From: Poseidonia sp.
GTDB taxonomy: Archaea; Thermoplasmatota; Poseidoniia; Poseidoniales; Poseidoniaceae
Length of the DNA stretch: 64,000 bases
NCBI GenBank assembly: GCA_016778305.1
Contig: JADHPT010000001.1
Span: forward strand, 136,457 to 200,456
Direction of reading: 5' to 3'
The notes below the pieces were generated by a model. The model made no database searches. It had not been told where the DNA came from and saw only the letters and a program-made list of their open reading frames with translations. Shown here piece after piece: positions 1 through 48,724 of this stretch. The stretch's first letter is position 1. Every line of letters begins with the position of its first letter. The position numbers and the translations under genes were made by a program.

Positions 1-2390
1 CGAGGAAAGCATTGAATGGTTTATTTCTCTTGGACGTAAATTCTTCGAGTAAAATTGACTTTCCTTCAGTAAAGATCGGCTTAGCCTCATCAGGCGTGAT
101 CATGCGCTTGCACATCACGTTCTGCATTCCTCGGAAGGTACACTCTGGGTTGTCACAATTGTAGGCGCTCTTCGTAATTCGGATGGAGCCGTGGTCACAT
201 ACGGGACACGGGCACAATACTTCGTCGTCTTCACTGGTACCTCCACCAGCTCCACCTTTCGTTGTGACCTTGCCATCCTTCGATAGTACAACAGATGTTT
301 CGTATCCCTCTCCTGCTTGAGAGAAGAATCCATGGAGGTCGTCAAGGGAACCATTCGCTATCAACAATGATGCGGTGCTACGGTCAAACCAACGGCCAGA
401 GGTATCTTTCCAGAAGACAAAGGGGCAACCCTTGTTCCGTCCCTCATTATGCTCGCACTGATAGGCCAGAGTGTTTTCCATAATCGCCCCACTGCATGAA
501 GGACATTCACCGAGGCTTGGTTCTTCAAGATACAAGTTGCTTCGATCATGGTCACGAATTCGTTCAACCATTGTTTGAGTTTGTTGGATGATTTTATCCA
601 TGTAGATTTCCATTGGTTCTTCTCCTCGTTGAACAGAGAGGAGTGATGCTTCCATATCACCCGTCAATTCTGGTGAGGTGATCCATTCGACTGGAATGCG
701 GCGGAGTACGTCTATCATGCGTATTCCATGGGGTGATGCGCTGATGGTACCGTTGCGTGATCGTCGAATATAATTACGACTCAACAACTTTTCGATGGTG
801 TCGGCACGGGTTGCTGGCGTCCCCAATCCCTTTTCTTTCATAGCGTCAGCAAGTTCTTCATCATCGATGTGTTTGCCTGCATGTTCCATCAATTGAAGCA
901 AACTTGCTTCTTTAAGTCGATTTTTCGGCTTGCTTTTCTCTTCTGAGAATTCATGAGAATCGAGCGATGTGTCACAAGGGTTGCTGCTGAGGTTGCCCCA
1001 TCCCTCTGGTACTTTGTCCTTCTTTGTAACAACCGCACGCCATCCCGGTACAGCTAAACGTTCAACTTCTTTGATGAATTGATGGCCAGATTTGGTTGTG
1101 GTTCGTTTGGTGACAGTCCATTCGGCTACAGGGTGCCAAGAGGCAAGGAAATTTCTGACGATCATGTCGTACAGTTTAGCGTGGTCGCCTCCAAAATTAC
1201 CGGGAGGTATTTGGCCAGTCGGGACAATGGCATAGTGATCAGAAACTTTTGAATTATTGAAGTTCCTCTTTGCATTTGCCAAACCATCAGATTGTAAACG
1301 TGTGACATGTTCTGAGTAATGTGATTGGCTACCAAGATCGTTCAGTGTTTTGGCAACAGTCTCATGCATGTCTTCGGTAAGATACTTGGAATCGGTACGC
1401 GGGTAGGTTGTTAATTTGAATTTGTCATAGAGATCTTGTGCCACACCCAGCGTTCGTTTTGCAGACCATGACCACATACTGTTCGCCCTTTTCTGTAGGG
1501 TGGTGAGGTCGAAATTGAACGGAGGTTGTTCTTTCTTCGTGCGACTCTTTTCCTCCGTAGAGAATGGACCTTTGTCAGAGAGGGCCGCTTCGATTGTTTC
1601 CTTTTCTCTGACATCCATAATGCGATGCGCCATGTATTCAGGGCGCTCTTGGTCGTCTTTGTGACCTGTTCGCTCCCACCGAGCAGTCCAAAGAGCACCA
1701 TCTGCGGAGAAGGTTCCGTTGAGTTGCCAGTAGGGAACTGGGATGTGAGAAAGCACTTCGATTTCATGATCAACAACCAAAGCGAGTGTAGCAGTTTGAA
1801 CGCGTCCCAAAGAGTTGGCTGAACGATCTCGGTTTTGTGGTAGTCGGGTTGCAACTCGGGAACCATTCATGCCGATGATCCAATCTGCTCTTGATCGAGA
1901 GTATGCTGCATCACTTAGCGCCTGATATGTGGCGCCTGGTTGGCGGTTTTCGTATGCGTGTAGCATTGCATCATAGGTCATGGATTGCATCCACATTCGT
2001 GTCGTCGGTGTCTTTACCTTGGAGTGGGCAACGATGGTCCTGAAAATGAGTTCCCCTTCACGTGCAGCATCGCATGCATTGACGATTTCTGTAGTGGCCT
2101 TGTCTTTGAGTAGCTTCATGATCGCAGACAATTGTTTTTTTGCTCTGCCGCCCTTTGCTTTGTATTGAAAAGAATCGGGAATGTAGGGGAGTCGGTCGAT
2201 GGTATTAGGCCAATTTTTGAACTCTTTATCATAGTCGTCCATGTATTGGAGTTCAAGTAAATGTCCAATAGCCCACGTGATAATAATGTCCTCACTGAAC
2301 CAATGTGTATCCTTCTTTGTTGATATGCCAAGGACATTGGCAAGGTCTTCGGCAACACTTGGTTTCTCAGCGATGATGACGATAGACATG
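1..2390 (-). CDS. topA: DNA topoisomerase type IA (topoisomerase I/III), 3' end truncated by window edge
   Basis: Absent from the ORF track because there is no stop inside the window. Manual translation of the minus strand from ATG 2388-2390 stays open to position 1 (>790 codons). Motifs: N-terminal TOPRIM MSIVIIAEKPSVAEDLA; GRVQTATLALVVDHEIE; SAKRTLGVAQDLYDKFKLTTYPRTDS; KGLGTPATRADTIEKL; C-terminal Cys4 zinc-ribbon repeats. Confidence 0.85.
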
Positions 2391-18248: not shown

Positions 18249-20573
18249 TTACTTCCGCTTTCGTTTCTTTTCAATAGCCTTCTGAAGGATTCTGCAACGG
18301 CGGATTTGATCCTTCGCACGCTTCTGTGCATCTGTATCCAATCCACGTGGCATTGCCTGTTCGAAGCACTTGATGGCGTCGTTATAGCGTTCCATCTCCG
18401 CATAGGCTGTGCCCATGTTGTACAGAGTTTCACCACGAACTTCTGTAGGTTTGATCAACATGGCTTGGTGGTAGGCTTCTACACACTTCGGATATTGTTC
18501 GAGGAAATAGTACGCATTGCCTCGATTGTTGAGGATACGGATGATCATATCGTCGTCACCTGCAAAGGCTGGAAGGGCTTTATCAAAGCAGGAGAGAGCT
18601 TCTTTGTATTTCTTATCGTCAATTAGTTGTACGCCTTGATTAAACCAAGCAACATCTTGGTTTGAGATAGCCTTCGATTGTGTTGTTTGTGGCGTTGTCC
18701 TCGCAACTGTTTGCGCAGCATCCAATGCAGCTTTCGCCAGGTCCACTTCCACATTTTCAACAGGCAAGACAGCAACTGCTTTCGGTTCAACGGGAGTCAT
18801 CAAGAGGTTGCTTTCTGGTGTGGAAGGAGCTGCCAAGATCTCTTGATCCTCCATAGGATCGGGCGTTGCAGGGGTCAGCAGTGCATTGTAATCTTGTTGT
18901 ACCATTTCGGCTATGGGTTCTGCAGTTTCTTGGACGGCTTCGGGTTCAATAGGTGTTGCTGGTTGAGGTTCTACACCTCCTGAAAGTGTGCGAGCCTTTG
19001 CATGACATTTCTGAGCTGTCTCAAGATCTCCGGCTTGTTCAAGTGCACGAGCAAGGCCGTGCCAGTATTCTGCATGTTGCCCGTCTGATTGTATCAGCGA
19101 CTTCCAATGCAAAACTGCATCACCATGTTGGAGACTTAATGACAAAGCCAAACCCTTTCTCGGTGAGTTTTCAACCCCGAGGTGTGTGAGGGCCTCTTTC
19201 GCCATATCGGGCCCTGCGGGTAGTGTAGGAGGAAGTCCACTGACTTGATCGAGAACATCACTTTCGCCTTGTGCAAGTTGAAGCAACATGTCAATAAATT
19301 CGTTTTTTACGGTGTGGTTGCCATCAATTTGCAACAGTTGGCGTGAACTTGCGAGGAAGCTCTCGATGAATCCATACTCGCGAGATAGAGCGTTAAGTTT
19401 CTCAGCAGATTTGAGATACGTTGCGTCTGCGTCCAAAGATTTCTGGTACGAATTCATGGCTTCATTCATCATAGAGTTGCGTTGTTGAATTGAACCCAAA
19501 TTAAACCAACCAGGTGCGTGTGTGGGCTCAAGGTTCTGTGCGTGTGTCATCGCTGCTATGGCGTGATTATCCAATTCAAGACGAGCCATTGCCCCTCCTG
19601 CAATTCTCCAAGCCCCTGAGTTGGTTGCTCCAATTGTCTTCAAATAAGGCTTGAGCATGCTCAATGCCTGCTTAGGCTCGCCATCTTTGAGCAATTGAGT
19701 AGCTTGTTCAACCAGTGATTCAATATCGGGCTCAGCAACCGCTTCTGATACAGGTTCTGGTGCTTCAACAACCGGTTGAGGCTCCTGAATTGCAACCACC
19801 TCTTTCATCGCTTCTTGTTGTGCAACGACAACTTCTGCTGCACTTTCCAATTCTTCAACCGTCAAACTATCATCGTCATCGTGATCGTGGTGGACGGCTT
19901 CCTGCAGTAAGTCTTGTGGATTTTCAATTCCAGCTGCTTCAGCAACCTCTGTTACAACATCCATGTCAACTTCTTGGACAACTTCAATGGACGGTTTCAT
20001 CGCTTCCATGGGAACGGATAGTCCGCTGTTCTTGGATCGGTCCTTGAGGTCGACCAATGCGGGGTGACCAGGGAAAAACTTGAGTGCCTTTTCTGCCATC
20101 TCATATGCACCTTCAAGATCCCCAATCCGTTCCAAAAGAATGGCCATGTTGGCTGTAGCTGGAGCGTGATTTTCATTGAGGTCGAGGCATATTTGGAAAG
20201 ATTGCCGGGCCCCTCGAGCGTCTTGTTGTGCTTCGAGAAGTACACCGCGATTGAACCAAGCCATATCGCATGATGGATCCAATGCAATCGCTTTGTTGAA
20301 TGCAGCTAAGGCACCTTTAATTTCATCTCTGCGAGAGCGCTCTTCACCAACATTGAGGAGAATCTGGACCATCTCTTCAGTATCTTCAACATCCTCTATT
20401 TCAGGAATGATATTGCTTGGTGTCGCCTTGACGATCTCCTCTGGTTCTTCAATAGAATCAGGTTCGTTTTGAACAGCATCAATGGCCGCATCAACGGCAG
20501 TTAGATCTTCCTCAGTAATCTCGTCCAACGGTATTTCAGAGGCATCTTGATTCGACGTTTCATCCCCAACCAT
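18249..20573 (-). CDS. acidic TPR-repeat protein
   Basis: 774 aa. TPR-like repeats at both ends (AWFNRGVLLEAQQD...; AWFNQGVQLIDDKKYKEAL...YNMGTAYAEMERYNDAIKCFEQA). Long D/E-rich linker and a basic KRKRK tail. Confidence 0.7.
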   Translation of the reverse strand: MVGDETSNQDASEIPLDEITEEDLTAVDAAIDAVQNEPDSIEEPEEIVKATPSNIIPEIEDVEDTEEMVQILLNVGEERSRRDEIKGALAAFNKAIALDPSCDMAWFNRGVLLEAQQDARGARQSFQICLDLNENHAPATANMAILLERIGDLEGAYEMAEKALKFFPGHPALVDLKDRSKNSGLSVPMEAMKPSIEVVQEVDMDVVTEVAEAAGIENPQDLLQEAVHHDHDDDDSLTVEELESAAEVVVAQQEAMKEVVAIQEPQPVVEAPEPVSEAVAEPDIESLVEQATQLLKDGEPKQALSMLKPYLKTIGATNSGAWRIAGGAMARLELDNHAIAAMTHAQNLEPTHAPGWFNLGSIQQRNSMMNEAMNSYQKSLDADATYLKSAEKLNALSREYGFIESFLASSRQLLQIDGNHTVKNEFIDMLLQLAQGESDVLDQVSGLPPTLPAGPDMAKEALTHLGVENSPRKGLALSLSLQHGDAVLHWKSLIQSDGQHAEYWHGLARALEQAGDLETAQKCHAKARTLSGGVEPQPATPIEPEAVQETAEPIAEMVQQDYNALLTPATPDPMEDQEILAAPSTPESNLLMTPVEPKAVAVLPVENVEVDLAKAALDAAQTVARTTPQTTQSKAISNQDVAWFNQGVQLIDDKKYKEALSCFDKALPAFAGDDDMIIRILNNRGNAYYFLEQYPKCVEAYHQAMLIKPTEVRGETLYNMGTAYAEMERYNDAIKCFEQAMPRGLDTDAQKRAKDQIRRCRILQKAIEKKRKRK

Positions 20574-20692
20574 TGAATCACCGCGGTCCTACCACTGTGG
20601 TTGCGTGCATAAGCCTTGCTTCTTTTTGCTTTAACATCAAAGCCTACATTCAAAGAGTACGTTGATTTGCACGAGGTATGACAGTCAAGAAG

Positions 20693-21223
20693 ATGAAAGT
20701 CCTAGGGCTATCTGGCGAATATCGAAGAACATCCAAATCTGGTATGCTTATCGCTCGGGCATTGGCACTTGCAGAAGAACAAGGTGCTGATATTATGTTT
20801 TGGGATCTTGCTGAAAAACCTCTCCCATTGGTGGGAGAAGATGGATGTTGGAATCATCCAAACGTGCAGGAGTTTCAGAATCTTCTCCTTGAAACTGATG
20901 CTTTTTTGGTTGCTTCTCCCGAATATCACGGGACCATGTCTGGCGTCATGAAGAACACATTCGATTGGATGTATGACAAACACGTTGGAGGAAAGGTCTT
21001 CGGATTGATGTCAACATTGGGTGGTGTTACCAATTCAAATACACTCAATCACATGCGCATCACCCTTCGTTGGTTACATGCATGGCCGGTTCCTGAACAA
21101 TTGGCAGTCGGATACGTCAAGGAGGCCTTCAATGAGCAAGGACTTCTTAACGATGAGGGGCTTCAGTTGCGACTCAATGCATTGGTTAGATCAGTTTTAG
21201 AAGCCTCTGAAAAACTACGGTGA
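20693..21223 (+). CDS. NAD(P)H-dependent FMN reductase (flavodoxin-like fold)
   Basis: MKVLGLSGEYRRTSKSG...LVASPEYHGTMSGVMKN pattern of the NADPH-dependent FMN reductase family. Confidence 0.7.
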   Translation: MKVLGLSGEYRRTSKSGMLIARALALAEEQGADIMFWDLAEKPLPLVGEDGCWNHPNVQEFQNLLLETDAFLVASPEYHGTMSGVMKNTFDWMYDKHVGGKVFGLMSTLGGVTNSNTLNHMRITLRWLHAWPVPEQLAVGYVKEAFNEQGLLNDEGLQLRLNALVRSVLEASEKLR

Positions 21224-21975
21224 AGGGCGATATCATGGAGGCCGAAAAGCCGCGCTTCACTGACCAGTGGGGGGCCCAATACTGTCTTGTTGAACCCGGC
21301 GAGTTCTTGATGGGAACCAAAAGGGGTTCGCCGAGAGAGTCTCCACAACACCTCGTCAAGATATCAGAGCCATTTTTTCTCGGTGAACGCCCAGTTACCC
21401 AGGCTCAATGGACCGATTTAATGGATTCGAATCCCTCAACATTCCAAGAAGGTTGGAGCGCAGGCCTCAGACCTGTGGAATCTATTTCAATGGATGAAAT
21501 CCATCTGTTCCTCCAACGATTAAACGACAGGGAACAGGGAACTGAACGTTTGGGCGTTGTAGGAAGTTGGAGATTACCTTCTGAGTCCGAGTGGGAATAT
21601 GCTGCAAAAGCAGGGACTTCTGGGCGGTGGTGGTTCGGTGACCGGGACACAGAGCTCGATGAATACGGTTGGCATGCAGGGAATTCAGGTGGGTCTACTC
21701 GCGAAGTTGGCTTGAAGAAAGCCAACCCTTGGGGATTTCATGACATGAATGGTTTGATCAATGAGTGGTGCGCTGACGTCTGGGTTCCCAATTTTAACAC
21801 ACCACGGACACAACGACCACATAATGATGCAACAGAACGATATGTTGTGAAAGGTGGGTCATGGTTTACTGAAAGCGATTCGACACGCAGCGCTGCTAGA
21901 TCCTTTGCAGAGCGATCTAAGAAAAGCGACGGCCTTGGGTTGCGACTCGTTTGGGACCCAACCGATATGGCCTGA
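21220..21975 (+). CDS. FGE-sulfatase/SUMF1-like domain protein, apparently non-catalytic
   Basis: RLPSESEWEYAAKAG, WHAGNSGGSTREVG, NPWGFHDMNGLINEWC. The paired C-terminal cysteines of true formylglycine-generating enzyme are absent. Confidence 0.75.
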   Translation: MKGDIMEAEKPRFTDQWGAQYCLVEPGEFLMGTKRGSPRESPQHLVKISEPFFLGERPVTQAQWTDLMDSNPSTFQEGWSAGLRPVESISMDEIHLFLQRLNDREQGTERLGVVGSWRLPSESEWEYAAKAGTSGRWWFGDRDTELDEYGWHAGNSGGSTREVGLKKANPWGFHDMNGLINEWCADVWVPNFNTPRTQRPHNDATERYVVKGGSWFTESDSTRSAARSFAERSKKSDGLGLRLVWDPTDMA

Positions 21976-21979
21976 TGAG

Positions 21980-22342
21980 ATGATTGAAATGACCCTACGA
22001 ATTTACCACTACAAGCGATGCTCAAAATCAAGGCAAGCATTATCGTTTCTCGAGTCAATTGGCGAAGTTTCTGTTATCGATTATCACCTTCATCCACCTC
22101 AACGAGAAGAACTCGAAGATTTGATGCAACGTTCTATTCACCCGCCTCATGAATTTATTCGACTGAACAACGAAATTCCACTTGATTCAAATTCAAGTCA
22201 GGACGCCATCATTGAATATCTCACGATCCATCCTCGCGTACTTCAACGTCCACTTGTCGACGATGGAAGTGCAGTTGTTATCGGTCGCCCATTGGAAAAC
22301 CTTCAGCATCTTCCAGCCCTCTCAAGGCATTTCCCCAGATAG
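21980..22342 (+). CDS. ArsC/Spx-family thioredoxin-fold protein
   Basis: Start ATG 21980 (MIEMTLRIYHYKRCSKSRQALSFLE), CxxS motif. C-terminal PLVDDGSAVVIGRP. Confidence 0.7.
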   Translation: MIEMTLRIYHYKRCSKSRQALSFLESIGEVSVIDYHLHPPQREELEDLMQRSIHPPHEFIRLNNEIPLDSNSSQDAIIEYLTIHPRVLQRPLVDDGSAVVIGRPLENLQHLPALSRHFPR

Positions 22343-22825
22343 TGGGGTGACATCGTACACGTGCCCTTCCTTGAGGATGCTTAATTGCTGATTATTTGGT
22401 ATGAGGCCTGGCCGAACGGACCACCTGCCATCAAGAGGTTCTTCCAGCATCAGGATAAGTTGGTGGTATTGAAGCAAGCCCAATGCTTGGGCAGTTCGTG
22501 CAACTACGGGGGATATATCTTCTTGAAATACATCGTTCATGATTTGACATACTTCTGCGAAGGTACGGCTACCATCGCATAATTCCCACAACATGCTGTT
22601 CATTGTGTCCAAAGGACGACGTAATTCCTTTGGCGCACGTAGTATTCGTGCCATAAATTTCTCAAATCTTTTGAATTTCTTTTCAATGCGTATCGTGATA
22701 GTTCTGCCGCTGACACCTCGAACTTGAGGGTCTTTACCAACATCTCCGTGACGAGCCCACCAAACGGGTAAACGGCAAGGATATTGATCTGCGAAGTTAT
22801 GGTCTTGGAGTCCTGATATCTCCAT
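22322..22825 (-). CDS. PqqD-like (RiPP-recognition-element-type) domain protein
   Basis: 167 aa. Central LDTMNSMLWELCDGSRTFAEVCQIMNDVFQEDISPVVARTAQALGLLQYHQLI fits the PqqD/RRE pattern. N- and C-terminal extensions of unknown function. Confidence 0.5.
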   Translation of the reverse strand: MEISGLQDHNFADQYPCRLPVWWARHGDVGKDPQVRGVSGRTITIRIEKKFKRFEKFMARILRAPKELRRPLDTMNSMLWELCDGSRTFAEVCQIMNDVFQEDISPVVARTAQALGLLQYHQLILMLEEPLDGRWSVRPGLIPNNQQLSILKEGHVYDVTPLSGEMP

Positions 22826-22830
22826 TTATT

Positions 22831-23025
22831 TCACCTCAAAACTCCATCCATGTCCATGTCAAGAGTGTTAGCATGGCCGCAGTGCCGACTAAGGCGGTGG
22901 TGCGCGTCGCCTGAAGCCGCTGCGTGAAATTGCGGAGGTACCACGTCAACACCCCGCATATGGCAACAATAACCCACAAGACATACCATGCAGGTGGATA
23001 AGGTGACACAGAAGGGCCTGTTCAC
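22831..23025 (-). CDS. small Cys/His-rich ORF (64 aa), possibly a real peptide
   Basis: FCVTLSTCMVCLVGYCCHMRG...HHRLSRHCGH. Its ATG overlaps the stop of the giant upstream gene (ATGA) and it ends 5 nt before the PqqD-like gene. Could be spurious. Confidence 0.3.
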   Translation of the reverse strand: MNRPFCVTLSTCMVCLVGYCCHMRGVDVVPPQFHAAASGDAHHRLSRHCGHANTLDMDMDGVLR

Positions 23026-26000
23026 AATGTGCCATCAAGATATTGTTGTCCGTAATAGGTCCACTGTTCTTCTGTCCAACCTGCTGGTAAGCCGCTCGCA
23101 GGTAATGGCGGGCCCGTTGGTGCGATTTCGACAGGTACCGTCGGAGCATTGATGGCTTCCTCAACGGGTTGATCTGCTGCAATAGTGGATACGTTGTTTC
23201 GGTCGCTGGTTGGAGGTCCTGAAATCGGTGCGACTTCTTTATGATATTCATTCCCTTCAAATCCGAGTTCTTCGTCTCGATTTCGGGTGCCTCGTAGCAT
23301 GAATACGAGGAGTGCGACAAATGCAATGCCTCCGATGCTCCCGCCTACCATCACAACGGAACCAAACGAATCATCTTCCGGTGGTTGTTCAAAGGATAAC
23401 ATCACCACCTGAGTAGATCTCAGTTCACCATCATCTGACGCAACGACAAACCTCACTTCTCCATCTAGCGGTCCGTTGAGATTGAGAACCTCGCAGCGAT
23501 TTTGGTTAAATTGTGGCGTTATGTGCCCTGGTGTGGCTTCAAATTGAATGCCTGTAGAATTGATCAGGCGTTTATCGCATGTAACCTGCCAACCCTCATC
23601 TGCAGATGCTGTGAGCGTGTACTGTTCTGTCATGGTTGAGGAGGAAGTATGATTCACCCAGATACTTGCCGCTGTGCCGTAATCTACGATGCCAGGGATG
23701 GATGGTGCTGCGGTCATCACCATGCTGCGTTGTTGGTCAAGAAGAATCATTGATTCGTCCATTAAGATGATTGGTAAATTTTCTTCATCAACGACACCAA
23801 TGACATCAAACCGAATGACGAATTGTGTGTTGAGGGGTGTGTCAGCAGGCACGATGACTTCAACTCGTAGTGTCACATTCGAACTAGCCGGAATGATGAG
23901 TTCGACTTCTGAACCCATTTCTTTTTGTCCCCCATCGATGGTGAAGAATGAAATGAGGCCAACTGTAGGAGGTGAAGAGGATAAGGTGGCCACTACAGAG
24001 AGACGGTTTTCTACCGCATTACCATCATTGAACAAAACAGTTTCAGCATAAAACATCCCATTCGCCATCGTTGAACCACTGTTTGATGAATGTCCGAGTG
24101 AAGGTTGCCGGACTGCGCCAGTGGCTGCCAACACTTCGACGCTGTTATCAGTCGGGTTGGAATCGATTCCCTCAGTCATGATGACTGCCTCGATATTGAT
24201 GTTGTGCAATTCGCCGGCGGCTTCCGTCATCGGAAGCATAACCCACAGGGTTACGTTACTGATGTGCATGAGGTCGTACGAGACACTCAGATCAATTGGA
24301 CCTGTGTGTTCTTCATTTTCAATTGTGAGCCACCAAGTCCATGTTTCTGGTAAATCAATTGGATTGATTCCAACTTGCGTTGGGCCGTTTCCTTTGTTTT
24401 CAACAATTAATTGTATTGCGTTTGGGATGCTAGGCGTTAGTTTCGTCGGAGCCTCTCCAATGGAAAGAGCAACATCGTGCGTGGTGCTAACACGCATCCG
24501 GTCAAAGGAATCACCTTCTACAGTCATGAAACTGCGTTGAGATTCAATGACTGGTTTAATCGTGGGGCCACGATCATTAGCGATTGCATTGTGAGGGACA
24601 TCGATAACGATTTCAAATGTGGTTGACATCCCTGAATTGAGGACTGCGTCAGGCCGAGTCGGTTGATGAACAACCCACTGACCCGCATCTTCTACCAAAA
24701 CGCTCATCGCAAAAATATCTTGTCGGGTCGCATTATTCCATATCATATATTCAAGGACGATGGATTCTCCAGCATCGACAAAATACCAATCAGAATCTAT
24801 GTCTGAAATGAGCATCACTGATGCATCGCTTATCATTGATGCAGATATTGGTATATCTGCGGATGCTACCCGACTCGTATCGTTTTGAGAACGAAGCGTG
24901 AATTCAACATCAACAATCGTATCAGGTGCAGCAGTTTCTGGAACTGTCATGGTCATCAGCACGTTGAAAACATCATCTGGCCTCAACAATACCGATGATG
25001 GTTGTGACCAAGCGAGACCGACAGACCAACCACTGGGTAGAGAAGAAGTATCAATATCCACATCAAATACATCGGTGGCATCTCCTTGATTGGTGATGCC
25101 GACCTCAAAGGTGCAGGTGTATGATGGTGGGCAACTTGGACGGACACTCGGGGGAAGGATGACGGGGATTCTGTCAGCCATCACAAGGAATTGGACGGGC
25201 ACAACGGTTGAAATGCTCGAGTATTGCATGGAACGAATTGAAACACTCATTTGTTGGAACCCGATGCTAGCGTTGGCATCTGGTTTAATCATGATTTGAA
25301 ACGGAGTAGGGGTTCCGGGAATCGTCATCAGCCCCTCCAATGGGTCGAGACTTGTCCCGGATGGACGTGCATAATAGGCATCCCACCCAGTAGGCAACCC
25401 GATCATCTCAGGAATGAAAAATTCTGAGATATTACCGGTATTCAAGATCTCGATATTGATGCTTCCCCATTCACCAGGTATTGCACCATTTGTCCCCGTC
25501 CCTTGGGCAGACACATTGTAATCTGTCATACGCACCTTCTGATCATATAAAATGACGATTTCATCAATGTAGAATCCAATGTCGGTGCCACTTGCGTCTG
25601 AGGTAAACTCAAATTTGAATTGGCTGGATGAATGGAAGAGGTCCGCTGCTACAGGGAGAAGTGGGGAGGTTGCACCTTTGTTGTTGAAGCTGAATGTATT
25701 CCAATTAGCACCGTCCGTAAAATCTTGGTCAACGGTTCCTGAAATAGTTCCTATTTCTGACCAAGCACCGAAAACGTTGATTCCATAAACCGTTAATTTA
25801 TCATTGGCGAGTGTGCTCCCAGTGTAATAAAATGAAAGTCCATTGGTTCGCAGTGGATTGCTGATAGCATCCGATAAATCCATGACAGGTGTTGTCATTA
25901 TGGACAGTGCATTGTTATTGTAGGTCGACAATTGACCGTTTCCTGCATGGCAGCTGCGACCCTTCGAAATTGATGTATCAGTACTAAGTGTCCAACCTGA

Positions 26001-26594
26001 GCCAAGAGTCCATTGTGTCGTTGCATCGCAATTGAAGTATTCATAGCCAACGGCAAAACCTTGCGACATTGCATCATTGCTTGGTACATCATCGGATATC
26101 GTTGATGTCGCACGCATGACCAAGGTATGGTTTCCCGAATACGTTGGAATGATAACAAGGTTGGCTGTATTGCTTGATCCGGGGGAAAGTGATGCCATTT
26201 GGACGGTCGTATTAACGAATTCAAAATAGGTATACTCATTGTGGAGCAATAGGACATTCACATCGATGACTCCCGATGAAGCCGTACCAATATTTTCAAC
26301 TGTCACGGTTAAGGATGTGGACACGTTGACCATTGAATCGATGACGTAGAGTTCTGCGGGACGATTAAAACCCAAAATTGGATGATTGGATGAAAACATT
26401 CTGTAATTGTCTTCATCCGTGCTTGTTGTATAGGATACTGAGACGTCGATGACACGTACGTCAACACCCGTTGGGTTGCTTGGACTCAATAGCGGCGAAG
26501 CCTTTTCGAGCCAACTCACATTCGAAAGAGGCGAACCCAGCATAATGAGGGCAAGGATAAGAGGTACGATTCTCCGCATGTTGACCATAAACAC
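23022..26594 (-). CDS. giant Ser/Thr/Asn-rich surface (S-layer/adhesin-like) glycoprotein with C-terminal TM anchor
   Basis: 1190 aa. Signal peptide MRRIVPLILALIMLGSPLS. Many N-x-S/T sequons and beta-rich repeats. Single C-terminal TM helix and a 90-aa cytoplasmic tail ending PAGWTEEQWTYYGQQYLDGTL. Confidence 0.8.
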   Translation of the reverse strand: MFMVNMRRIVPLILALIMLGSPLSNVSWLEKASPLLSPSNPTGVDVRVIDVSVSYTTSTDEDNYRMFSSNHPILGFNRPAELYVIDSMVNVSTSLTVTVENIGTASSGVIDVNVLLLHNEYTYFEFVNTTVQMASLSPGSSNTANLVIIPTYSGNHTLVMRATSTISDDVPSNDAMSQGFAVGYEYFNCDATTQWTLGSGWTLSTDTSISKGRSCHAGNGQLSTYNNNALSIMTTPVMDLSDAISNPLRTNGLSFYYTGSTLANDKLTVYGINVFGAWSEIGTISGTVDQDFTDGANWNTFSFNNKGATSPLLPVAADLFHSSSQFKFEFTSDASGTDIGFYIDEIVILYDQKVRMTDYNVSAQGTGTNGAIPGEWGSINIEILNTGNISEFFIPEMIGLPTGWDAYYARPSGTSLDPLEGLMTIPGTPTPFQIMIKPDANASIGFQQMSVSIRSMQYSSISTVVPVQFLVMADRIPVILPPSVRPSCPPSYTCTFEVGITNQGDATDVFDVDIDTSSLPSGWSVGLAWSQPSSVLLRPDDVFNVLMTMTVPETAAPDTIVDVEFTLRSQNDTSRVASADIPISASMISDASVMLISDIDSDWYFVDAGESIVLEYMIWNNATRQDIFAMSVLVEDAGQWVVHQPTRPDAVLNSGMSTTFEIVIDVPHNAIANDRGPTIKPVIESQRSFMTVEGDSFDRMRVSTTHDVALSIGEAPTKLTPSIPNAIQLIVENKGNGPTQVGINPIDLPETWTWWLTIENEEHTGPIDLSVSYDLMHISNVTLWVMLPMTEAAGELHNINIEAVIMTEGIDSNPTDNSVEVLAATGAVRQPSLGHSSNSGSTMANGMFYAETVLFNDGNAVENRLSVVATLSSSPPTVGLISFFTIDGGQKEMGSEVELIIPASSNVTLRVEVIVPADTPLNTQFVIRFDVIGVVDEENLPIILMDESMILLDQQRSMVMTAAPSIPGIVDYGTAASIWVNHTSSSTMTEQYTLTASADEGWQVTCDKRLINSTGIQFEATPGHITPQFNQNRCEVLNLNGPLDGEVRFVVASDDGELRSTQVVMLSFEQPPEDDSFGSVVMVGGSIGGIAFVALLVFMLRGTRNRDEELGFEGNEYHKEVAPISGPPTSDRNNVSTIAADQPVEEAINAPTVPVEIAPTGPPLPASGLPAGWTEEQWTYYGQQYLDGTL

Positions 26595-26627: not shown

Positions 26628-27581
26628 TCATTCCTCGGAGAGGTCTTCAATCGGAATCGATTCGGGTGGGGGTGTATTCGTGATGCCAGATTCAAGTTCG
26701 GTTTGGGCAAGTGCTAATTTGGCTTCCGTCTTCTTCTCTTTCGCCCGAGCTGCAAAGTATACCGTGAACGAGGGGATTAATACCATCGAGAAGCACCCAA
26801 CGACTGCCGCAAGGGCCCAAAGAAATTCAGTAGCAGCATCAACTGAAAACACCTCAACGCTGGAGAAGGCTTCGTTAACGGTCACCGCTGTTATGACCGG
26901 TTGGGTTGTTCGATTCCCTTGTTCAATGATTTCAATACGCAGGATCGATGGAGAATGTGTGTATTCAATCAAGGCACGTGATTTTTCTTCTGCCTCAACG
27001 ATGTCTTGTGCGAATACCGAACCGTTTGAGCGCCGTGCGGGATCAACCGACGTGAGTGCATAGAATTCAATGCGTTCTCCCTCTGGGCTGCTCCGTTCGT
27101 GGGAACTGTTATAGTAGCACAAATCTGCACAAGAGAATCCCTCTTCCAACGGGTCCTCCAAGTCATAGGTCGAACCCAATAATTCATGGCTGTAGAGTTT
27201 GGCGATACTCGTTACTCGCAACAGAGCCCCATCAGACAAATCTGAAGCGGTTACATTGACCCATGTCAGGTTGGTCCCGTCAGCGAAAACTTGCCATGCC
27301 CATGTCGTAGTATTGGTGTCTTGGTCGTAACTGCGTTCAATATCTTCGTCTGCTTGGGATGCATCGTAATCGTTGGCCGTTGCCTCTGTTTGATAGATGT
27401 AGACGGAGGGAGAGACGGTTGCACCGTAGACGGCATATGAGAGCATGAAAATAAGCGTTAACGACAACCCGATAAGGGTTCGAAGCAAATTTGGGTTCTG
27501 TGCCAATGCCTTCTTCATCAGGCTTACCAGCAGGAGGGTGTTCATCAAGGCTTGTATATTGAACCTTGAAATGGACTCCAT
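26628..27581 (-). CDS. hypothetical bitopic membrane protein (N-terminal signal-anchor, C-terminal TM, acidic tail)
   Basis: 317 aa, immediately upstream of the giant surface protein on the same strand. No family recognised. Confidence 0.5.
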   Translation of the reverse strand: MESISRFNIQALMNTLLLVSLMKKALAQNPNLLRTLIGLSLTLIFMLSYAVYGATVSPSVYIYQTEATANDYDASQADEDIERSYDQDTNTTTWAWQVFADGTNLTWVNVTASDLSDGALLRVTSIAKLYSHELLGSTYDLEDPLEEGFSCADLCYYNSSHERSSPEGERIEFYALTSVDPARRSNGSVFAQDIVEAEEKSRALIEYTHSPSILRIEIIEQGNRTTQPVITAVTVNEAFSSVEVFSVDAATEFLWALAAVVGCFSMVLIPSFTVYFAARAKEKKTEAKLALAQTELESGITNTPPPESIPIEDLSEE

Positions 27582-31862: not shown

Positions 31863-32522
31863 CTACAAAATTCCCATCCACTTATGCGTCTGTAATGACA
31901 GCCTCCATTCCGGATGCTCCTTAACCACCTGTTCGGTTATTGCAAACAAGGCTCCGTTTTCTTCAACACTTTGCTGATCGTCGTAACAGGGTTGTAAAAA
32001 CCAATGATCAAACCCATTTCGTAACTCGTCATACATCTCCAATGGCTGGCCAACGTATACGCATTTGAGTTCATCACCGATTCGTTGGCGAATCGAAACG
32101 TTTGGATACATCTGATCCTTTGGTGAGACACATATCCAATCAATCAATTCCTCAGGTATAGCAATCGTTCCGTTGGTCTCAACCGACAGATGGTAACCCC
32201 TTCTTTTGAGGAGTCGCGCAAGTGGCCACAAATCATTCAGCATCGGCTCTCCGCCAGTGAAAATGACATTTTTTGTGTTGTATTTCAGGACCTCTCCAAG
32301 AACGTCAATAGCCGGCATAACTTCGTATTCATCGAAATTCGTATCGCACCATTCACATCGTAGATTGCAGGCACCAAATCGAATGAATACATGGGGGATT
32401 CCTGCTCTGTAACCCTCACCCTGTACCGAATGGAAAATTTCCACGATATTGTAGTCCATTGCGAGGTCCTCGGCTTTGTCGCCGACCTCATCTCCAGCGC
32501 GGTTACAATCTACTGGCTCCAT
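31863..32522 (-). CDS. queE: 7-carboxy-7-deazaguanine synthase (radical SAM)
   Basis: [26 protein letters not shown]. Confidence 0.85.
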
Positions 32523-44457: not shown

Positions 44458-46263
44458 TCACTCTATGAACATGTCATCTTGATATCCGGTGACCAGGTCT
44501 CCAGTACCATCTTCTTCAATGGTCACAGTACCCTCGTCGTCATCAAATTCGATAATCGTACCAAAGACTTCCTCATCATCAAAGAGTAGTCCGACATGGG
44601 ATCCGATGTCAATCTCATCGTCTTCATCATCATCTTCTGAATCCTCTTGATCATCCTCGGATTCTTCTACATCCTCTTCCTCGTAATCTTCATGATCCTC
44701 TTCGTGTTCTTCGCCATCATCGGGATCGTCGCTTTCTTCTTCCTCAACCCCTGATTGGGTTGCATCGGCTCTGTCATCCTCAACTTCCTTCATAGCTTTG
44801 GCACGCGCTCGCCATGATGGTGCTTTGATGAGGTGCAAGAACAGCGAGGAAATCATTCCCATTACAGAGAGGAGGATGAACAAAATACCATCCCAATAAA
44901 ATCCCTTGGGCATTGATGATGAATCGCCTGCGAATGGAGTGAGGGAATTGTCGCATCCACCTTCTTGATATTTCACATCACAAGGGTACGGATCGCCTTC
45001 TGCAATGTCAAATGGTGGGACAACATTGTTCGGTTCATAGAAGACTGTACCACCACTTCCATCAACTGGCCCTATGAGTCCATTGACAAGAAGAATGGCG
45101 ATCGCAATCCCGAAGGCGGTGTGCAGAATTGGCCAAACAATATCGTTCCATTGTTTGGACATCATTCGCTTTTGCATCGGGGTAGGAAATGGCTCCTCAA
45201 TTATTGATTCAACTTCATCATCCATTTCTTCGATAGCGCCAATGAATTCGGTAATGTCAATCATTCCATCATTATCGGAATCGATTTGTTCGATCAAGGC
45301 TTCAATATCTTCCCCATCAAATTCACCTTCGTAGTCATTTGTTAGGGAGGAGCGCAGTTCTTCCATTGAAACCTGGCGGTTACCGTCTTTGTCGAGATCG
45401 TTGAACATACGTTGGGCCGAAATATCATGCTCTTCCATGAGGGCGACAAGGGCATGCAGTGGACTTTCAACATCGATATTTTCGTCGCTGTCTTCATCAA
45501 GATCAAAATCTTCCTCATCCATTTCGGCCTGTGTTGCACCTTCATCGGAGTCGTCCAGGTCTTCTGAAGAATGATGTACTTCATCTGATTCGGAAGTGTG
45601 ATCCTCTTGCGACTCAGGGGCTTCGTGTTTGAGTACAACTTCCTCTTCGGAGTCTTCCGCCACTTCCTCAAGTTCTTCATCGGATTCAGCCTCCTCTTCG
45701 TCCATGTCCGCTACAATATGCTCATCAGAATGAGCATCATGATGATCTGTGTCTCCGTGAAGAATTGTTTCAAACTCATCGAGGTCGATTACCCCGTTAT
45801 CATCAGCATCAATCTCCTTGACAAGTCTGTCAACTTGAGAAGGTGGTAAATCAGCGAGGTTGAGGCTCAACAAACCTGCCTTTAACTCCGATGCATCGAT
45901 CATGCCATCAGAATTCGTATCGAATTTCTGAAATAATTTTCGAATTTGAACGCCGGTATCATGCACCCATTTTCGCAGGATATCAACCACATCGTCTGCA
46001 ACGAATACGACATCACACTCAGGACATCGGGTGGAATCAAGAGGGACTAACGCATTGCAAGCTCCACATTCCCCAAGAGCTTCTTCTGATACGCCTGAAA
46101 ATTGAGTGTTACACTCCGGACATTCTGTAGAATCCAGGGGTATCAATGCTCGACACGAACCACATTCCGCCATGGGAATACTATTTTTTCCCTCGTCACT
46201 CATCTTTCCACCGATTCCATGGAGGGCGTCTCCAATTATAATGCTTGATGGGATTTTTATCAT
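44458..46263 (-). CDS. double zinc-ribbon, four-EF-hand, two-TM highly acidic membrane protein
   Basis: 601 aa. Two zinc ribbons (ECGSCRALIPLDSTECPEC; ECGACNALVPLDSTRCPEC). Four canonical EF-hand loops (DTNSDGMIDASE, DADDNGVIDLDE, DKDGNRQVSMEE, DSDNDGMIDITE). Two TM helices flank a Cys-containing loop. Long D/E tracts. Confidence 0.7.
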   Translation of the reverse strand: MIKIPSSIIIGDALHGIGGKMSDEGKNSIPMAECGSCRALIPLDSTECPECNTQFSGVSEEALGECGACNALVPLDSTRCPECDVVFVADDVVDILRKWVHDTGVQIRKLFQKFDTNSDGMIDASELKAGLLSLNLADLPPSQVDRLVKEIDADDNGVIDLDEFETILHGDTDHHDAHSDEHIVADMDEEEAESDEELEEVAEDSEEEVVLKHEAPESQEDHTSESDEVHHSSEDLDDSDEGATQAEMDEEDFDLDEDSDENIDVESPLHALVALMEEHDISAQRMFNDLDKDGNRQVSMEELRSSLTNDYEGEFDGEDIEALIEQIDSDNDGMIDITEFIGAIEEMDDEVESIIEEPFPTPMQKRMMSKQWNDIVWPILHTAFGIAIAILLVNGLIGPVDGSGGTVFYEPNNVVPPFDIAEGDPYPCDVKYQEGGCDNSLTPFAGDSSSMPKGFYWDGILFILLSVMGMISSLFLHLIKAPSWRARAKAMKEVEDDRADATQSGVEEEESDDPDDGEEHEEDHEDYEEEDVEESEDDQEDSEDDDEDDEIDIGSHVGLLFDDEEVFGTIIEFDDDEGTVTIEEDGTGDLVTGYQDDMFIE

Positions 46264-46321: not shown

Positions 46322-47182
46322 ATGCTGGGTTTGTATACGCTTGAACATGTGTCACATGATGCCACCTATTCTTGGTTTGAAGCAGCAACAGAGACTGTTG
46401 ATGTCAACCGAATATGCATCAGTAGGCTGCCACTACGAGCGCTCTTGCGCCATGTATCACCTTCTGGCACCCGTTGTTTTTGGCTCAGTGACCATCAGGG
46501 GCCAGCATCCATTCCACCTACTTGCGACGAAGTGGAATCCCGATTGAACAAAGAATTCGATGCAATACCCTCCTTTGTTCTCCTTGAGGGTTTGGACTGG
46601 ATCTTGAATAACGATGGTGAGGAAACGGTGCTGCAATTCCTACAACGTCTTGATCAACGGTGCCGTAGCGGCAACCATGTCGTCGTTTTTCCCGTTGATC
46701 CTTTGGTCTTTTCATCACGCTTTTGGTCTCGACTTCATTCAATAGCGCCCATGTTGCAAGGGCATCATGGATACGACGAAACGGACAATATCCCGTCTGT
46801 GACATCCAACTATGAGCCCGACTTGCCAGACACCACTCAACCAAAAGAGCAGGAACGAACGTTGGTACAATTGGTCGAGTTGCCGCGACGCGGATTTAAC
46901 AAAACCATTCTTTCAAAACGTATGCTTCAATGGAAAAGGATGGGCATTGATATTTCTGATTTGGAGCCTGCAATGGCGACTGAAGACATGGACAAAGCCC
47001 ATGGGATTTATTCCGAGGTTGAATCATTGGTTAAGGTTGCAGTCGATTTATGTCGCCTCGTTGACGCGAGCCGAGATAAATTAACCGTTACAGAGCGAGA
47101 GATCATGACATTCAAAATCATGCAACTTTCTTCCGTCAGTGAGGTAAAACAGCGACTAGAAGAAATCCTCGCCACGAGATAG
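46322..47182 (+). CDS. DUF835-like domain protein
   Basis: TRCFWLSDHQGPASIPPTCDEVESRLNKEFDAIPSFVLLEGLDWILNNDGEETVLQFLQRLDQRCRSGNHVVVFPVDPLVF fits the archaeal DUF835 pattern (family name recalled from memory). Confidence 0.5.
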   Translation: MLGLYTLEHVSHDATYSWFEAATETVDVNRICISRLPLRALLRHVSPSGTRCFWLSDHQGPASIPPTCDEVESRLNKEFDAIPSFVLLEGLDWILNNDGEETVLQFLQRLDQRCRSGNHVVVFPVDPLVFSSRFWSRLHSIAPMLQGHHGYDETDNIPSVTSNYEPDLPDTTQPKEQERTLVQLVELPRRGFNKTILSKRMLQWKRMGIDISDLEPAMATEDMDKAHGIYSEVESLVKVAVDLCRLVDASRDKLTVTEREIMTFKIMQLSSVSEVKQRLEEILATR

Positions 47183-48724
47183 TAGGCCATGTTCTGCTTC
47201 CAAGCGTGCAAGCCATCCTCCATCTTGCAATTGACTGCTGAGCTCAATGAGGTCATTGGAAGTTGAGCGGTCTCCCCTTAGGGGTTCCACGATGGTTCGA
47301 ACGAGTCCTTTGAAGCCATGGACGTGTGGTGCAGGGTTCAATTCTTCGTGCTCGAGGGCTTCGCAAGAAATCAAAGCCTCACAGGCGAGGATTTCAGCAA
47401 GATGCTGAGTTGATTCCAATAAATTCCATGCTGATGTAGCACCCATGCTGACGTGATCTTCCTGGCCAGCAGAGGTTGAGGTAGAGAACGCTGTCCGTGG
47501 GCCAGCTCTTCCATGTAATTCAGATAATGATGCTCCCGCCACATACTGTACAATCATGAGTCCCGACTCCAAACCTGAATTATGAGTTAAAAAGGCGGGC
47601 AAATCACTACGTGCAGGATCCAGCATTTGGTCCATCCTTCGCTCAGAAATAGATCCGAGTTCAAACAGTCCAAGCGTCATTGAATCGCAAACCATGGCTA
47701 CAATTTCACCGTGGAAATTGCCCTGTGAAAGCACTTCATGTGAACCAGGTTGTGAAGGGTTAGGGAATATGAGGGGATTGTCCGTAGCACTGTTGATTTC
47801 AATTCGAATCATTTCGTCTAGACGACGGTAGGCCTCCCAAACAGCACCGTGAACTTGAGGAGCGCAGCGAAATGAATAGGGGTCCTGCACTTTATCACAA
47901 TCCGTATGACTGGCCATGATGGGTGAGTTGGCGAGAAGCGTATTGAGTCGTTGGGCTATCGTTCGTTGACCGGGGTGCGGCCTGGCATTATGCACGAGCG
48001 GGTTTGCCGGTGTTAAACTGCATTTCCTAGCCTCCATCGACGTTGCTAGGATTACATCTGCCAAGACAAGAAGTTCACCTAATGCTTGGTGTGCAAGAAT
48101 TGCAAATGAACACATTTGACTTGTACCATTGATGAGGGACAGTCCGTCCTTAGCCGTGAGCGAAACGGGGAGTATTTCATGTTGCTCAAGTACATCATTT
48201 GTTGGTAGCCTCTCACCATTCAAGAGAACTTCTCCTTCCCCAATGAGTGTTAATGCGAGGTGTGACAGCGGAGCAAGATCACCACTGGCCCCCAGACTCC
48301 CAATACGCGGGACAAAGGGGTGAATTCCGATGTTGAGGTAGGTGACGAGTTGGTTGATACAATCGGGATGGATGCCTGAGTGCCCTTTGCACAAGGAATT
48401 CAATCTGATTACCATCATGCATCGAACGGCTTCAACACTCATCGCTGGACCTATTGCAGTGGCGTGAGATCGGATAAGATTCAATTGCAAGAGAGCAAGA
48501 TCGTCTTGGGAAATACGTTCGTGTACCAGAGCGCCAAAACCAGTATTAATGCCATAGACGGTTTCATTTTCATCCAAAATCCGGTCTACTACGGCGCGTG
48601 CTGCATGAATTTTTGGCCAAGCATCTTGTGATACTTGAACGGTAGCGTGAAACCGTGCAACCATCATAATTTCAGCGGGTGTCAGTGTTTCACCATCGAG
48701 GTGTATTGTGAGGGGATCGTTCAT
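47156..48724 (-). CDS. hutH: histidine ammonia-lyase
   Basis: MIO-forming GSLGASGDLAPLSH. ~520 aa aromatic amino acid lyase fold. Confidence 0.9.
   Translation of the reverse strand: MNDPLTIHLDGETLTPAEIMMVARFHATVQVSQDAWPKIHAARAVVDRILDENETVYGINTGFGALVHERISQDDLALLQLNLIRSHATAIGPAMSVEAVRCMMVIRLNSLCKGHSGIHPDCINQLVTYLNIGIHPFVPRIGSLGASGDLAPLSHLALTLIGEGEVLLNGERLPTNDVLEQHEILPVSLTAKDGLSLINGTSQMCSFAILAHQALGELLVLADVILATSMEARKCSLTPANPLVHNARPHPGQRTIAQRLNTLLANSPIMASHTDCDKVQDPYSFRCAPQVHGAVWEAYRRLDEMIRIEINSATDNPLIFPNPSQPGSHEVLSQGNFHGEIVAMVCDSMTLGLFELGSISERRMDQMLDPARSDLPAFLTHNSGLESGLMIVQYVAGASLSELHGRAGPRTAFSTSTSAGQEDHVSMGATSAWNLLESTQHLAEILACEALISCEALEHEELNPAPHVHGFKGLVRTIVEPLRGDRSTSNDLIELSSQLQDGGWLARLEAEHGLLSRGEDFF

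Follow-up and report, generated by a model that had tools for sequence, protein, structure and literature searches.

A predicted membrane microprotein and a PqqD/RRE-fold protein as a probable conserved pair in archaea, with a possible role as a peptide-binding adaptor

RRE domains (recognition elements of RiPPs, peptides that are made by the ribosome and modified after translation) bind a short peptide in extended form as an additional strand beside β3/α3, as exemplified by TbiB1, TfuB1, NisB, LynD, and PqqD. Here we describe a locus with a fold of this type in a stretch of 64,000 nucleotides of DNA from Poseidonia sp., a member of the Poseidoniales (marine group II, MGII) (contig JADHPT010000001.1, positions 136,457 to 200,456), which will be referred to as the window. 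In it, a small gene, s57, for a predicted membrane microprotein stands directly before the gene for a 167-amino acid protein with a PqqD/RRE-like core. RRE domains serve as class-independent beacons in RiPP genome mining (PMC7470986, PMC12710340). In the literature that could be searched, we found no description of a microprotein and RRE pair. Our overall interpretation, to which we give an even chance, is that the locus represents a conserved two-gene module of archaea that acts as a membrane-associated, peptide-binding adaptor and is not a RiPP pathway. All relevant genes of the locus are on the minus strand, and the features on which the argument turns are the following.

22322..22825, minus strand: PqqD/RRE-fold protein, 167 amino acids, predicted cytoplasmic (profile, family, and AlphaFold2 fold evidence)
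22836..23009, minus strand: s57, very probably the true small gene, 57 codons, GTG start, (M)SPYPPAWYVLWVIVAICGVLTWYLRNFTQRLQATRTTALVGTAAMLTLLTWTWMEF
22831..23025, minus strand: Cys/His-rich open reading frame (ORF) of 64 codons, very probably the DNA of s57 read in a wrong frame
22826..22838, minus strand: junction between the s57 stop and the RRE start, TGA-GGTGA-AATAA-ATG

Comparison of the 167-amino acid protein with described RRE systems

A sequence-only reading of the window had proposed that the core of the 167-amino acid protein fits the PqqD/RRE fold, and the predicted fold and the profile evidence from its homologue family bear this out. The single sequence matched PF05402 at 15.4 bits (E = 0.024), below the cutoff of 23.4 bits, and it is the fold and family evidence that rescues the assignment. 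Among close homologues, 31 of 35 matched PF05402 at E ≤ 0.1, with 1.2e-4 as the lowest value. When 1.84 billion representatives were searched with a profile, 312 relatives came up at E ≤ 1e-3; the distant ones share the core (profile positions about 43–130), and all 23 that were sampled matched PF05402, the best at 2e-10 and one, P0155, at 36.7 bits. Because these distant homologues pass and hhalign ties their alignment to that of the window family (probability 99.95%, E = 1e-38), membership in PF05402 holds transitively. The AlphaFold2 (AF2) model of the 167-amino acid protein (pLDDT 89.8, pTM 0.85) has strands at residues 15–18, 22–26, 42–48, 67–71 (β3), and 124–127 and helices at residues 53–62, 74–82, 89–100, and 107–120, and shows the three-stranded sheet followed by a three-helix bundle of the RRE-type winged helix-turn-helix. 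When this model was used in Foldseek, lasso B1 proteins ranked first, though weakly; against PDB sequences, the distant-family profile gave weak matches only, with TbiB1 and PqqD on top, and the close-family profile gave nothing useful. We conclude with high confidence that the 167-amino acid protein is a divergent PqqD/RRE fold. It belongs to the PqqD/RRE superfamily and, since no NCBIfam equivalog came near its cutoff, to no described subfamily.

The window family differs from the PqqD/RRE superfamily (PF05402) by a helix between β2 and β3, an additional N-terminal strand, and a conserved 40-amino acid C-terminal extension. The inserted helix (residues 49–64; 12–16 residues, with a conserved K-x-F-x-R-F-E) is cationic, and no other stretch of the protein is as amphipathic (hydrophobic moment 0.87). 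The R-R-P-L-D motif that ends β3 is nearly invariant, and Arg-70, Pro-71, and Asp-73 within it are invariant; further, the RRE proteins of marine group IIa (MGIIa) have a lineage-specific insertion between β1 and β2. Neither a signal peptide nor a hydrophobic segment of transmembrane (TM) strength was found in the 167-amino acid protein. Relatives were found in 176 species-representative genomes. The 120 homologues listed are 46–98% identical to the 167-amino acid protein, and nearly all of those with a named source are labeled Poseidoniales or Thermoplasmatota, with one metagenome-assembled genome (MAG) labeled Deltaproteobacteria.

The described systems that come closest differ from this locus both in profile scores and in gene content. 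NF033536, the model for lasso B1 proteins such as TbiB1 and TfuB1 (PDB 5V1U and 6JX3), did not match the window protein and gave 13–23 bits in its relatives against a cutoff of 80. In contrast to lasso systems, neither a B2 protease nor an Asn-synthetase-like cyclase recurs with the window family (a single gene for a 307-amino acid Asn_synthase-domain protein lies ~2 kb from the pair in locus L093 only), and s57 lacks the YxxPxL...T leader layout and is a predicted membrane protein. With PqqD proper (TIGR03859), the window protein scored 13.9 bits, below the cutoff of 46, and no PQQ-synthesis or radical-SAM/SPASM family and no pqq genes were found among the eight ORFs around the locus and the 20 largest ORFs in the rest of the window. 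GeoRSP (TIGR04302) and ScmD (TIGR04248) are alike in being small, discrete PqqD-family proteins that serve non-PQQ systems; they matched relatives weakly (15–27 bits against a cutoff of 100), and their systems hold radical-SAM/SPASM maturases, whereas none is present at the window locus.

A Pfam search of the same ORFs detected no RiPP tailoring enzyme, and there is none in the Pfam-annotated syntenic locus L001, the closest relative. The 20 largest other ORFs comprise housekeeping and catabolic genes only (DHODH, PfkB, tRNA endonuclease, M6 peptidase, TatC, aminotransferase, ABC-2, methylmalonyl-CoA mutase, Kae1/TsaD, amidohydrolase, an EF-hand protein, HAL, urocanase, S15 peptidase, MFS, molybdopterin oxidoreductase, PAN, and MetRS). 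The sole radical SAM of the window (31863..32522) is part of a GTP-cyclohydrolase I/QueC/PTPS 7-deazaguanine cluster and, because it is sited between GTP cyclohydrolase I and QueC/PTPS, is taken to be QueE-like; the sequence-only reading was right that the window holds no radical-SAM, YcaO, or lanthipeptide enzyme of a RiPP pathway. Further, no tailoring enzyme recurs across 11 contexts of relatives, and no enzyme is recurrent in L083–L089, L092, and L093. Compared with the PqqD/RRE superfamily, we note that the window locus has no nearby RiPP enzyme or classical precursor and that the partner is instead a hydrophobic microprotein; the combination of RRE, tailoring enzyme, and leader-core precursor that makes a RiPP cluster was not found.

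The small gene upstream and its product

The sequence-only reading had taken the small gene to be the 64-codon, Cys/His-rich ORF, overlapping the stop of an upstream gene for a 1190-amino acid surface protein and lying 5 nucleotides before the 167-amino acid gene. The ORF exists with the sequence that was quoted, the 4-nucleotide overlap and the 5-nucleotide spacing are as described, and the 167-amino acid ORF is in place; the overlap is GTGA and not ATGA (the plus strand reads tcac at 23022–23025), which gives the 64-codon ORF a GTG start. As a gene, the ORF does not hold up. It and s57 are different frames of the same DNA, and we compared these frames in 82 related loci (81 unique sequences for stop counts, nucleotide diversity, and pN/pS). 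The s57 frame aligned over its full length and without gaps in 82 of 82 loci (49–81% identity), each time immediately before the RRE gene, and was free of stops in all 81 unique sequences; in 57 of these, one or more internal stops interrupt the 64-codon frame. At codon positions 1, 2, and 3 of the s57 frame, nucleotide diversity was 0.35, 0.22, and 0.59, respectively. The pN/pS of the s57 frame, for which synonymous sites were unsaturated in only 118 pairs, was 0.29, compared with 1.12 and 1.54 for the other two frames, 1.54 being that of the 64-codon frame. In L001, whose RRE protein is 78% identical, the s57 frame is intact and 81% identical, and the start of the 64-codon ORF is destroyed (GTGA to GTAA). 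Thus, s57 shows the open frame, purifying selection, and kept length of a real coding gene, and the 64-codon ORF shows neither an open frame, purifying selection, nor a kept start; Pfam and NCBIfam scans gave no family match for the latter. The sequence-only reading had staked its small ORF on conservation among relatives, and across the 81 loci that conservation is lacking. Since the frame is not under selection as a coding sequence and most relatives have it interrupted, the Cys/His peptide and the idea that it binds metal are unsupported. Judged from these alignments, the 64-amino acid ORF is very probably an off-frame artifact of s57, and s57 is the real gene.

The annotation of this region in databases is correspondingly uneven. 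This 57-amino acid gene has been annotated by the NCBI pipeline in two Poseidonia assemblies (MAGs), and a word-indexed search of a 5.8-billion-cluster protein collection with s57 returned a single protein match. The database RRE entries P0055 and P0058 (234 amino acids) are over-extended upstream through the off-frame sequence and bear the same spurious Cys/His-rich N terminus.

In the window, the s57 stop is 10 nucleotides from the RRE start, and a Shine-Dalgarno-like GAGGTGA lies over the s57 stop codon. In the 81 unique loci, the spacing ranges from −4 to 12 nucleotides, and in 62 of them a Shine-Dalgarno-like motif is found within 16 nucleotides of the RRE start. Because the Shine-Dalgarno sequence of the window overlaps the s57 stop, s57 and the RRE gene are likely to be translationally coupled.

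The hydropathy of the s57 protein reveals two hydrophobic segments around a basic loop, WYLRNFTQRLQATRTT, which carries a charge of +3. By the positive-inside rule, the protein would be a two-TM hairpin with its loop in the cytoplasm. The s57-type protein is conserved over its whole length, both hydrophobic segments included, and the hairpin homologues (hidden Markov model E values of 1e-19 to 1e-25) share a G-x-x-T-W motif that ends the first hydrophobic segment and a 12–14-residue basic loop with a conserved Thr, together with neutral or acidic termini; Pfam and NCBIfam scans of the hairpin proteins gave nothing meaningful. An NFT sequon in the s57 loop was considered as a mark of extracellular glycosylation and rejected, as non-MGII homologues are without the sequon and the loop is the sole basic part of the protein.

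The pair and its neighbors in MGIIa and other archaea

Synteny within the Poseidoniaceae extends over more than 15 kb, and adjacency within this family is therefore uninformative. Beyond MGIIa, a 58-amino acid s57 homologue overlaps the start of the PqqD-like gene in MGIIb (L083 and L087), where an FMN reductase gene lies upstream and a giant protein is lacking. Another four archaeal contigs (L084, L086, L088, and L093) have a 56–66-amino acid s57 homologue directly before the PqqD-like gene, with TBP, Cdc6, Mtr, and diphthamide synthase genes among the neighbors; other, unrelated neighbors of hairpin homologues are OPT transporter, AlaRS, TPR, methanopterin-type radical SAM, and geranylgeranyl reductase genes. 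Homologues of s57 occur in five or more lineages, and the giant surface-protein gene is absent beside the pair in L083, L084, L086, L087, L088, and L093. Because distant relatives keep the pair amid unrelated neighbors, we are confident that the conserved unit consists of the hairpin microprotein and the RRE-fold protein.

In several non-MGII loci, a gene of ~85 codons for a four-cysteine zinc ribbon comes directly after, and often overlaps, the PqqD-like gene. Its product has the pattern CPxCG...YYENALITGYKYHCxDCDY and a weak match to DUF7838, and it did not turn up in MGII loci or in the window. The zinc-ribbon genes are located as follows.

L086, 6435..6686: zinc-ribbon gene
L089, 2407..2673: zinc-ribbon gene
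L085, 8744..9004: zinc-ribbon gene
L092, 5618..5890: zinc-ribbon gene
L093, ~1148..1267: zinc-ribbon gene

The MGIIa loci have additional genes upstream of the pair, which in the window are the following.

23022..26594, minus strand: surface protein, 1190 amino acids, with signal peptide, CARDB/Ig-like domains, C-terminal TM segment, and a cytoplasmic tail of ~90 amino acids
23025..23114, minus strand: C-terminal tail of the surface protein, 30 amino acids, GPPLPASGLPAGWTEEQWTYYGQQYLDGTL, nearly invariant in MGIIa
26628..27581, minus strand: up317, conserved membrane or secreted protein of ~290–317 amino acids, first gene of the co-directional row

The 1190-amino acid surface protein named by the sequence-only reading is indeed encoded here, with matches to CARDB and Ig-like domains (FixG_C and NPCBM_assoc) and a hydrophobic N terminus. 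Its pairing with the RRE protein stands for MGIIa, in which the stop of the giant gene is 1–46 nucleotides (mostly 12) before the s57 start, co-directionally, in 82 of 82 loci, but not beyond, as MGIIb and other archaea keep the pair without the giant gene. The surface protein is an addition to the pair seen only in MGIIa loci. There, the genes form a row of up317, giant, s57, and RRE (gaps of 33, 12, and 10 nucleotides in the window), which was seen in all loci with enough flank and is convergent with ArsC-like, FGE-sulfatase, and FMN-reductase genes. In all MGIIa loci, the giant protein ends, after a variable linker, in one copy of the motif GPPLPxxGLPxGWTxEQWxYYGQQYLDGTL, which had no Pfam match and was not found in MGIIb or the other loci compared. 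The motif is loosely like the first half of a WW domain with PPLP before it. Speculatively, the 30-amino acid tail is a candidate cytoplasmic ligand motif; that it serves as a lineage-specific client of the pair in MGIIa seems to us unlikely.

Several further observations concern the surroundings of the row. The up317 protein has hydrophobic N- and C-terminal segments and no family match; as homologues have ~288 amino acids, translation probably begins downstream of the listed ATG. An ArsC/Spx-family gene (21989..22342, plus strand) converges on the RRE gene, with the 3′ ends overlapping by 21 nucleotides; it closes a co-directional row of FMN-reductase, FGE-sulfatase-domain, and ArsC-like genes (20678..22342), and about half of the MGIIa loci lack it. 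A link between the pair and these genes was considered and rejected, as they are convergent and absent from non-MGII contexts. In most of the lineages examined (L083, L087, L088, L089, and L084), as in the window (18249..20573, minus strand), a TPR-repeat gene is found no more than about 3 kb from the pair, in L088 immediately upstream and co-directional, by chance or through a real association. Elsewhere in the window, a 601-amino acid protein (44458..46263, minus strand) gave strong EF-hand pair matches (E = 5e-22) and is encoded near the histidine-utilization genes HAL (47156..48724) and urocanase (48721..50811).

A putative membrane-docked adaptor and its alternatives

We think that a physical complex of s57 and the 167-amino acid protein has somewhat less than an even chance of existing. 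In such a complex, the s57 hairpin would sit in the membrane with its basic loop on the cytoplasmic face, and the RRE-fold protein would be held at that face by s57, most likely via the conserved basic loop. The simplest model would be a 1:1 membrane-docked complex in which s57 supplies the bound peptide with its loop or another part exposed to the cytoplasm; the cationic amphipathic helix at residues 49–64 may lie on the membrane surface and help docking. The complex would then act as a peptide-binding adaptor or chaperone at the membrane and not as a guide for a RiPP enzyme, and the near-invariant tail of the MGIIa giant protein would be a possible client. Several observations speak against this model. 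The strand at residues 124–127, after α3, could itself fill the peptide-binding edge by β3. The s57 loop and the inserted helix are both basic, and an attraction between them is not obvious. Further, AF2 run on s57 alone (from a two-sequence alignment) gave one 50-residue helix and no hairpin. One lineage (L085, L089, and L092) has the PqqD-like gene and the zinc ribbon with no adjacent hairpin gene, and much of the synteny among Poseidoniales reflects shared ancestry.

Five alternatives to this model were weighed. The 64-amino acid ORF could be a real coupled peptide, either metal-binding or a RiPP precursor, that is handled by the RRE protein, and it is present, overlaps the upstream stop, and ends just before the RRE gene; given the start lost in L001, the stops in most unique sequences, and a pN/pS of 1.54 versus 0.29 for s57, as well as tblastn conservation no greater than an overlapping frame would yield and the lack of a family match, we regard this as extremely improbable. 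Service to the surface protein is a more serious proposal, although still an unlikely one: the RRE protein would bind the tail of the giant (and perhaps that of up317) and aid its insertion, sorting, or anchoring, with s57 as the membrane dock. The invariable position of the giant gene just before s57 in MGIIa, a tail motif far better conserved than the linker before it, and the β1-β2 insertion in MGIIa RRE proteins agree with this, but in MGIIb and the four other hairpin-bearing archaeal contigs the pair has neither a giant neighbor nor the motif, and the association of giant and pair is accordingly a single evolutionary event. Peptide chaperoning for surface-layer assembly, a role raised by the sequence-only reading, is possible for the MGIIa loci only.

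We consider it improbable that the RRE protein presents s57 or another peptide to a RiPP-like enzyme encoded elsewhere in the genome. The RRE fold is a hallmark of RiPP pathways (PMC7470986, PMC12710340), a small ORF directly upstream occupies the classical position of a precursor, and lasso B1 proteins with their leaders bound come closest in structure; set against this, no tailoring enzyme recurs in the 11 contexts or in the 64 kb here, s57 is conserved throughout, unlike a leader/core precursor, and seems to be one of the core genes of a streamlined lineage, and no NCBIfam RiPP-chaperone model reached its cutoff. That s57 and the RRE gene are independent and merely adjacent is comparably improbable: the long synteny of the Poseidoniaceae would allow it there, but the overlap or gap of no more than ~60 nucleotides persists where all other neighbors differ, and the Shine-Dalgarno sequence overlaps the s57 stop codon. 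A membrane-tethered, winged-helix DNA-binding regulator of the CadC/ToxR or MarR type, sequestered or activated by s57 and with the zinc ribbon as a co-factor elsewhere, is a reading we hold to be quite improbable too.

Returning to the adaptor interpretation, we tentatively suggest, in full awareness that it is more doubtful than the complex itself, that the RRE fold, away from RiPP biosynthesis, has come to serve as a membrane-docked housekeeping adaptor that binds peptides and has s57 as its dedicated partner, in an ancient core module of Poseidoniales and other archaea that sometimes has a zinc ribbon as a third subunit and that in MGIIa may read the tail of the giant protein. Within the known PqqD/RRE superfamily, the family would stand out as an orphan that has a membrane microprotein for its dedicated partner. 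The locus also exposes an annotation gap, in that the s57 gene is nearly always missed and off-frame sequence contaminates the N termini of RRE entries. If our interpretation is true, a widespread archaeal RRE family without a tailoring enzyme and with a membrane microprotein as its constant partner would be a systematic false positive for RRE-based RiPP mining, and the RRE fold would have been put to a new use in everyday cell biology, in marine archaea that rank among the most abundant.
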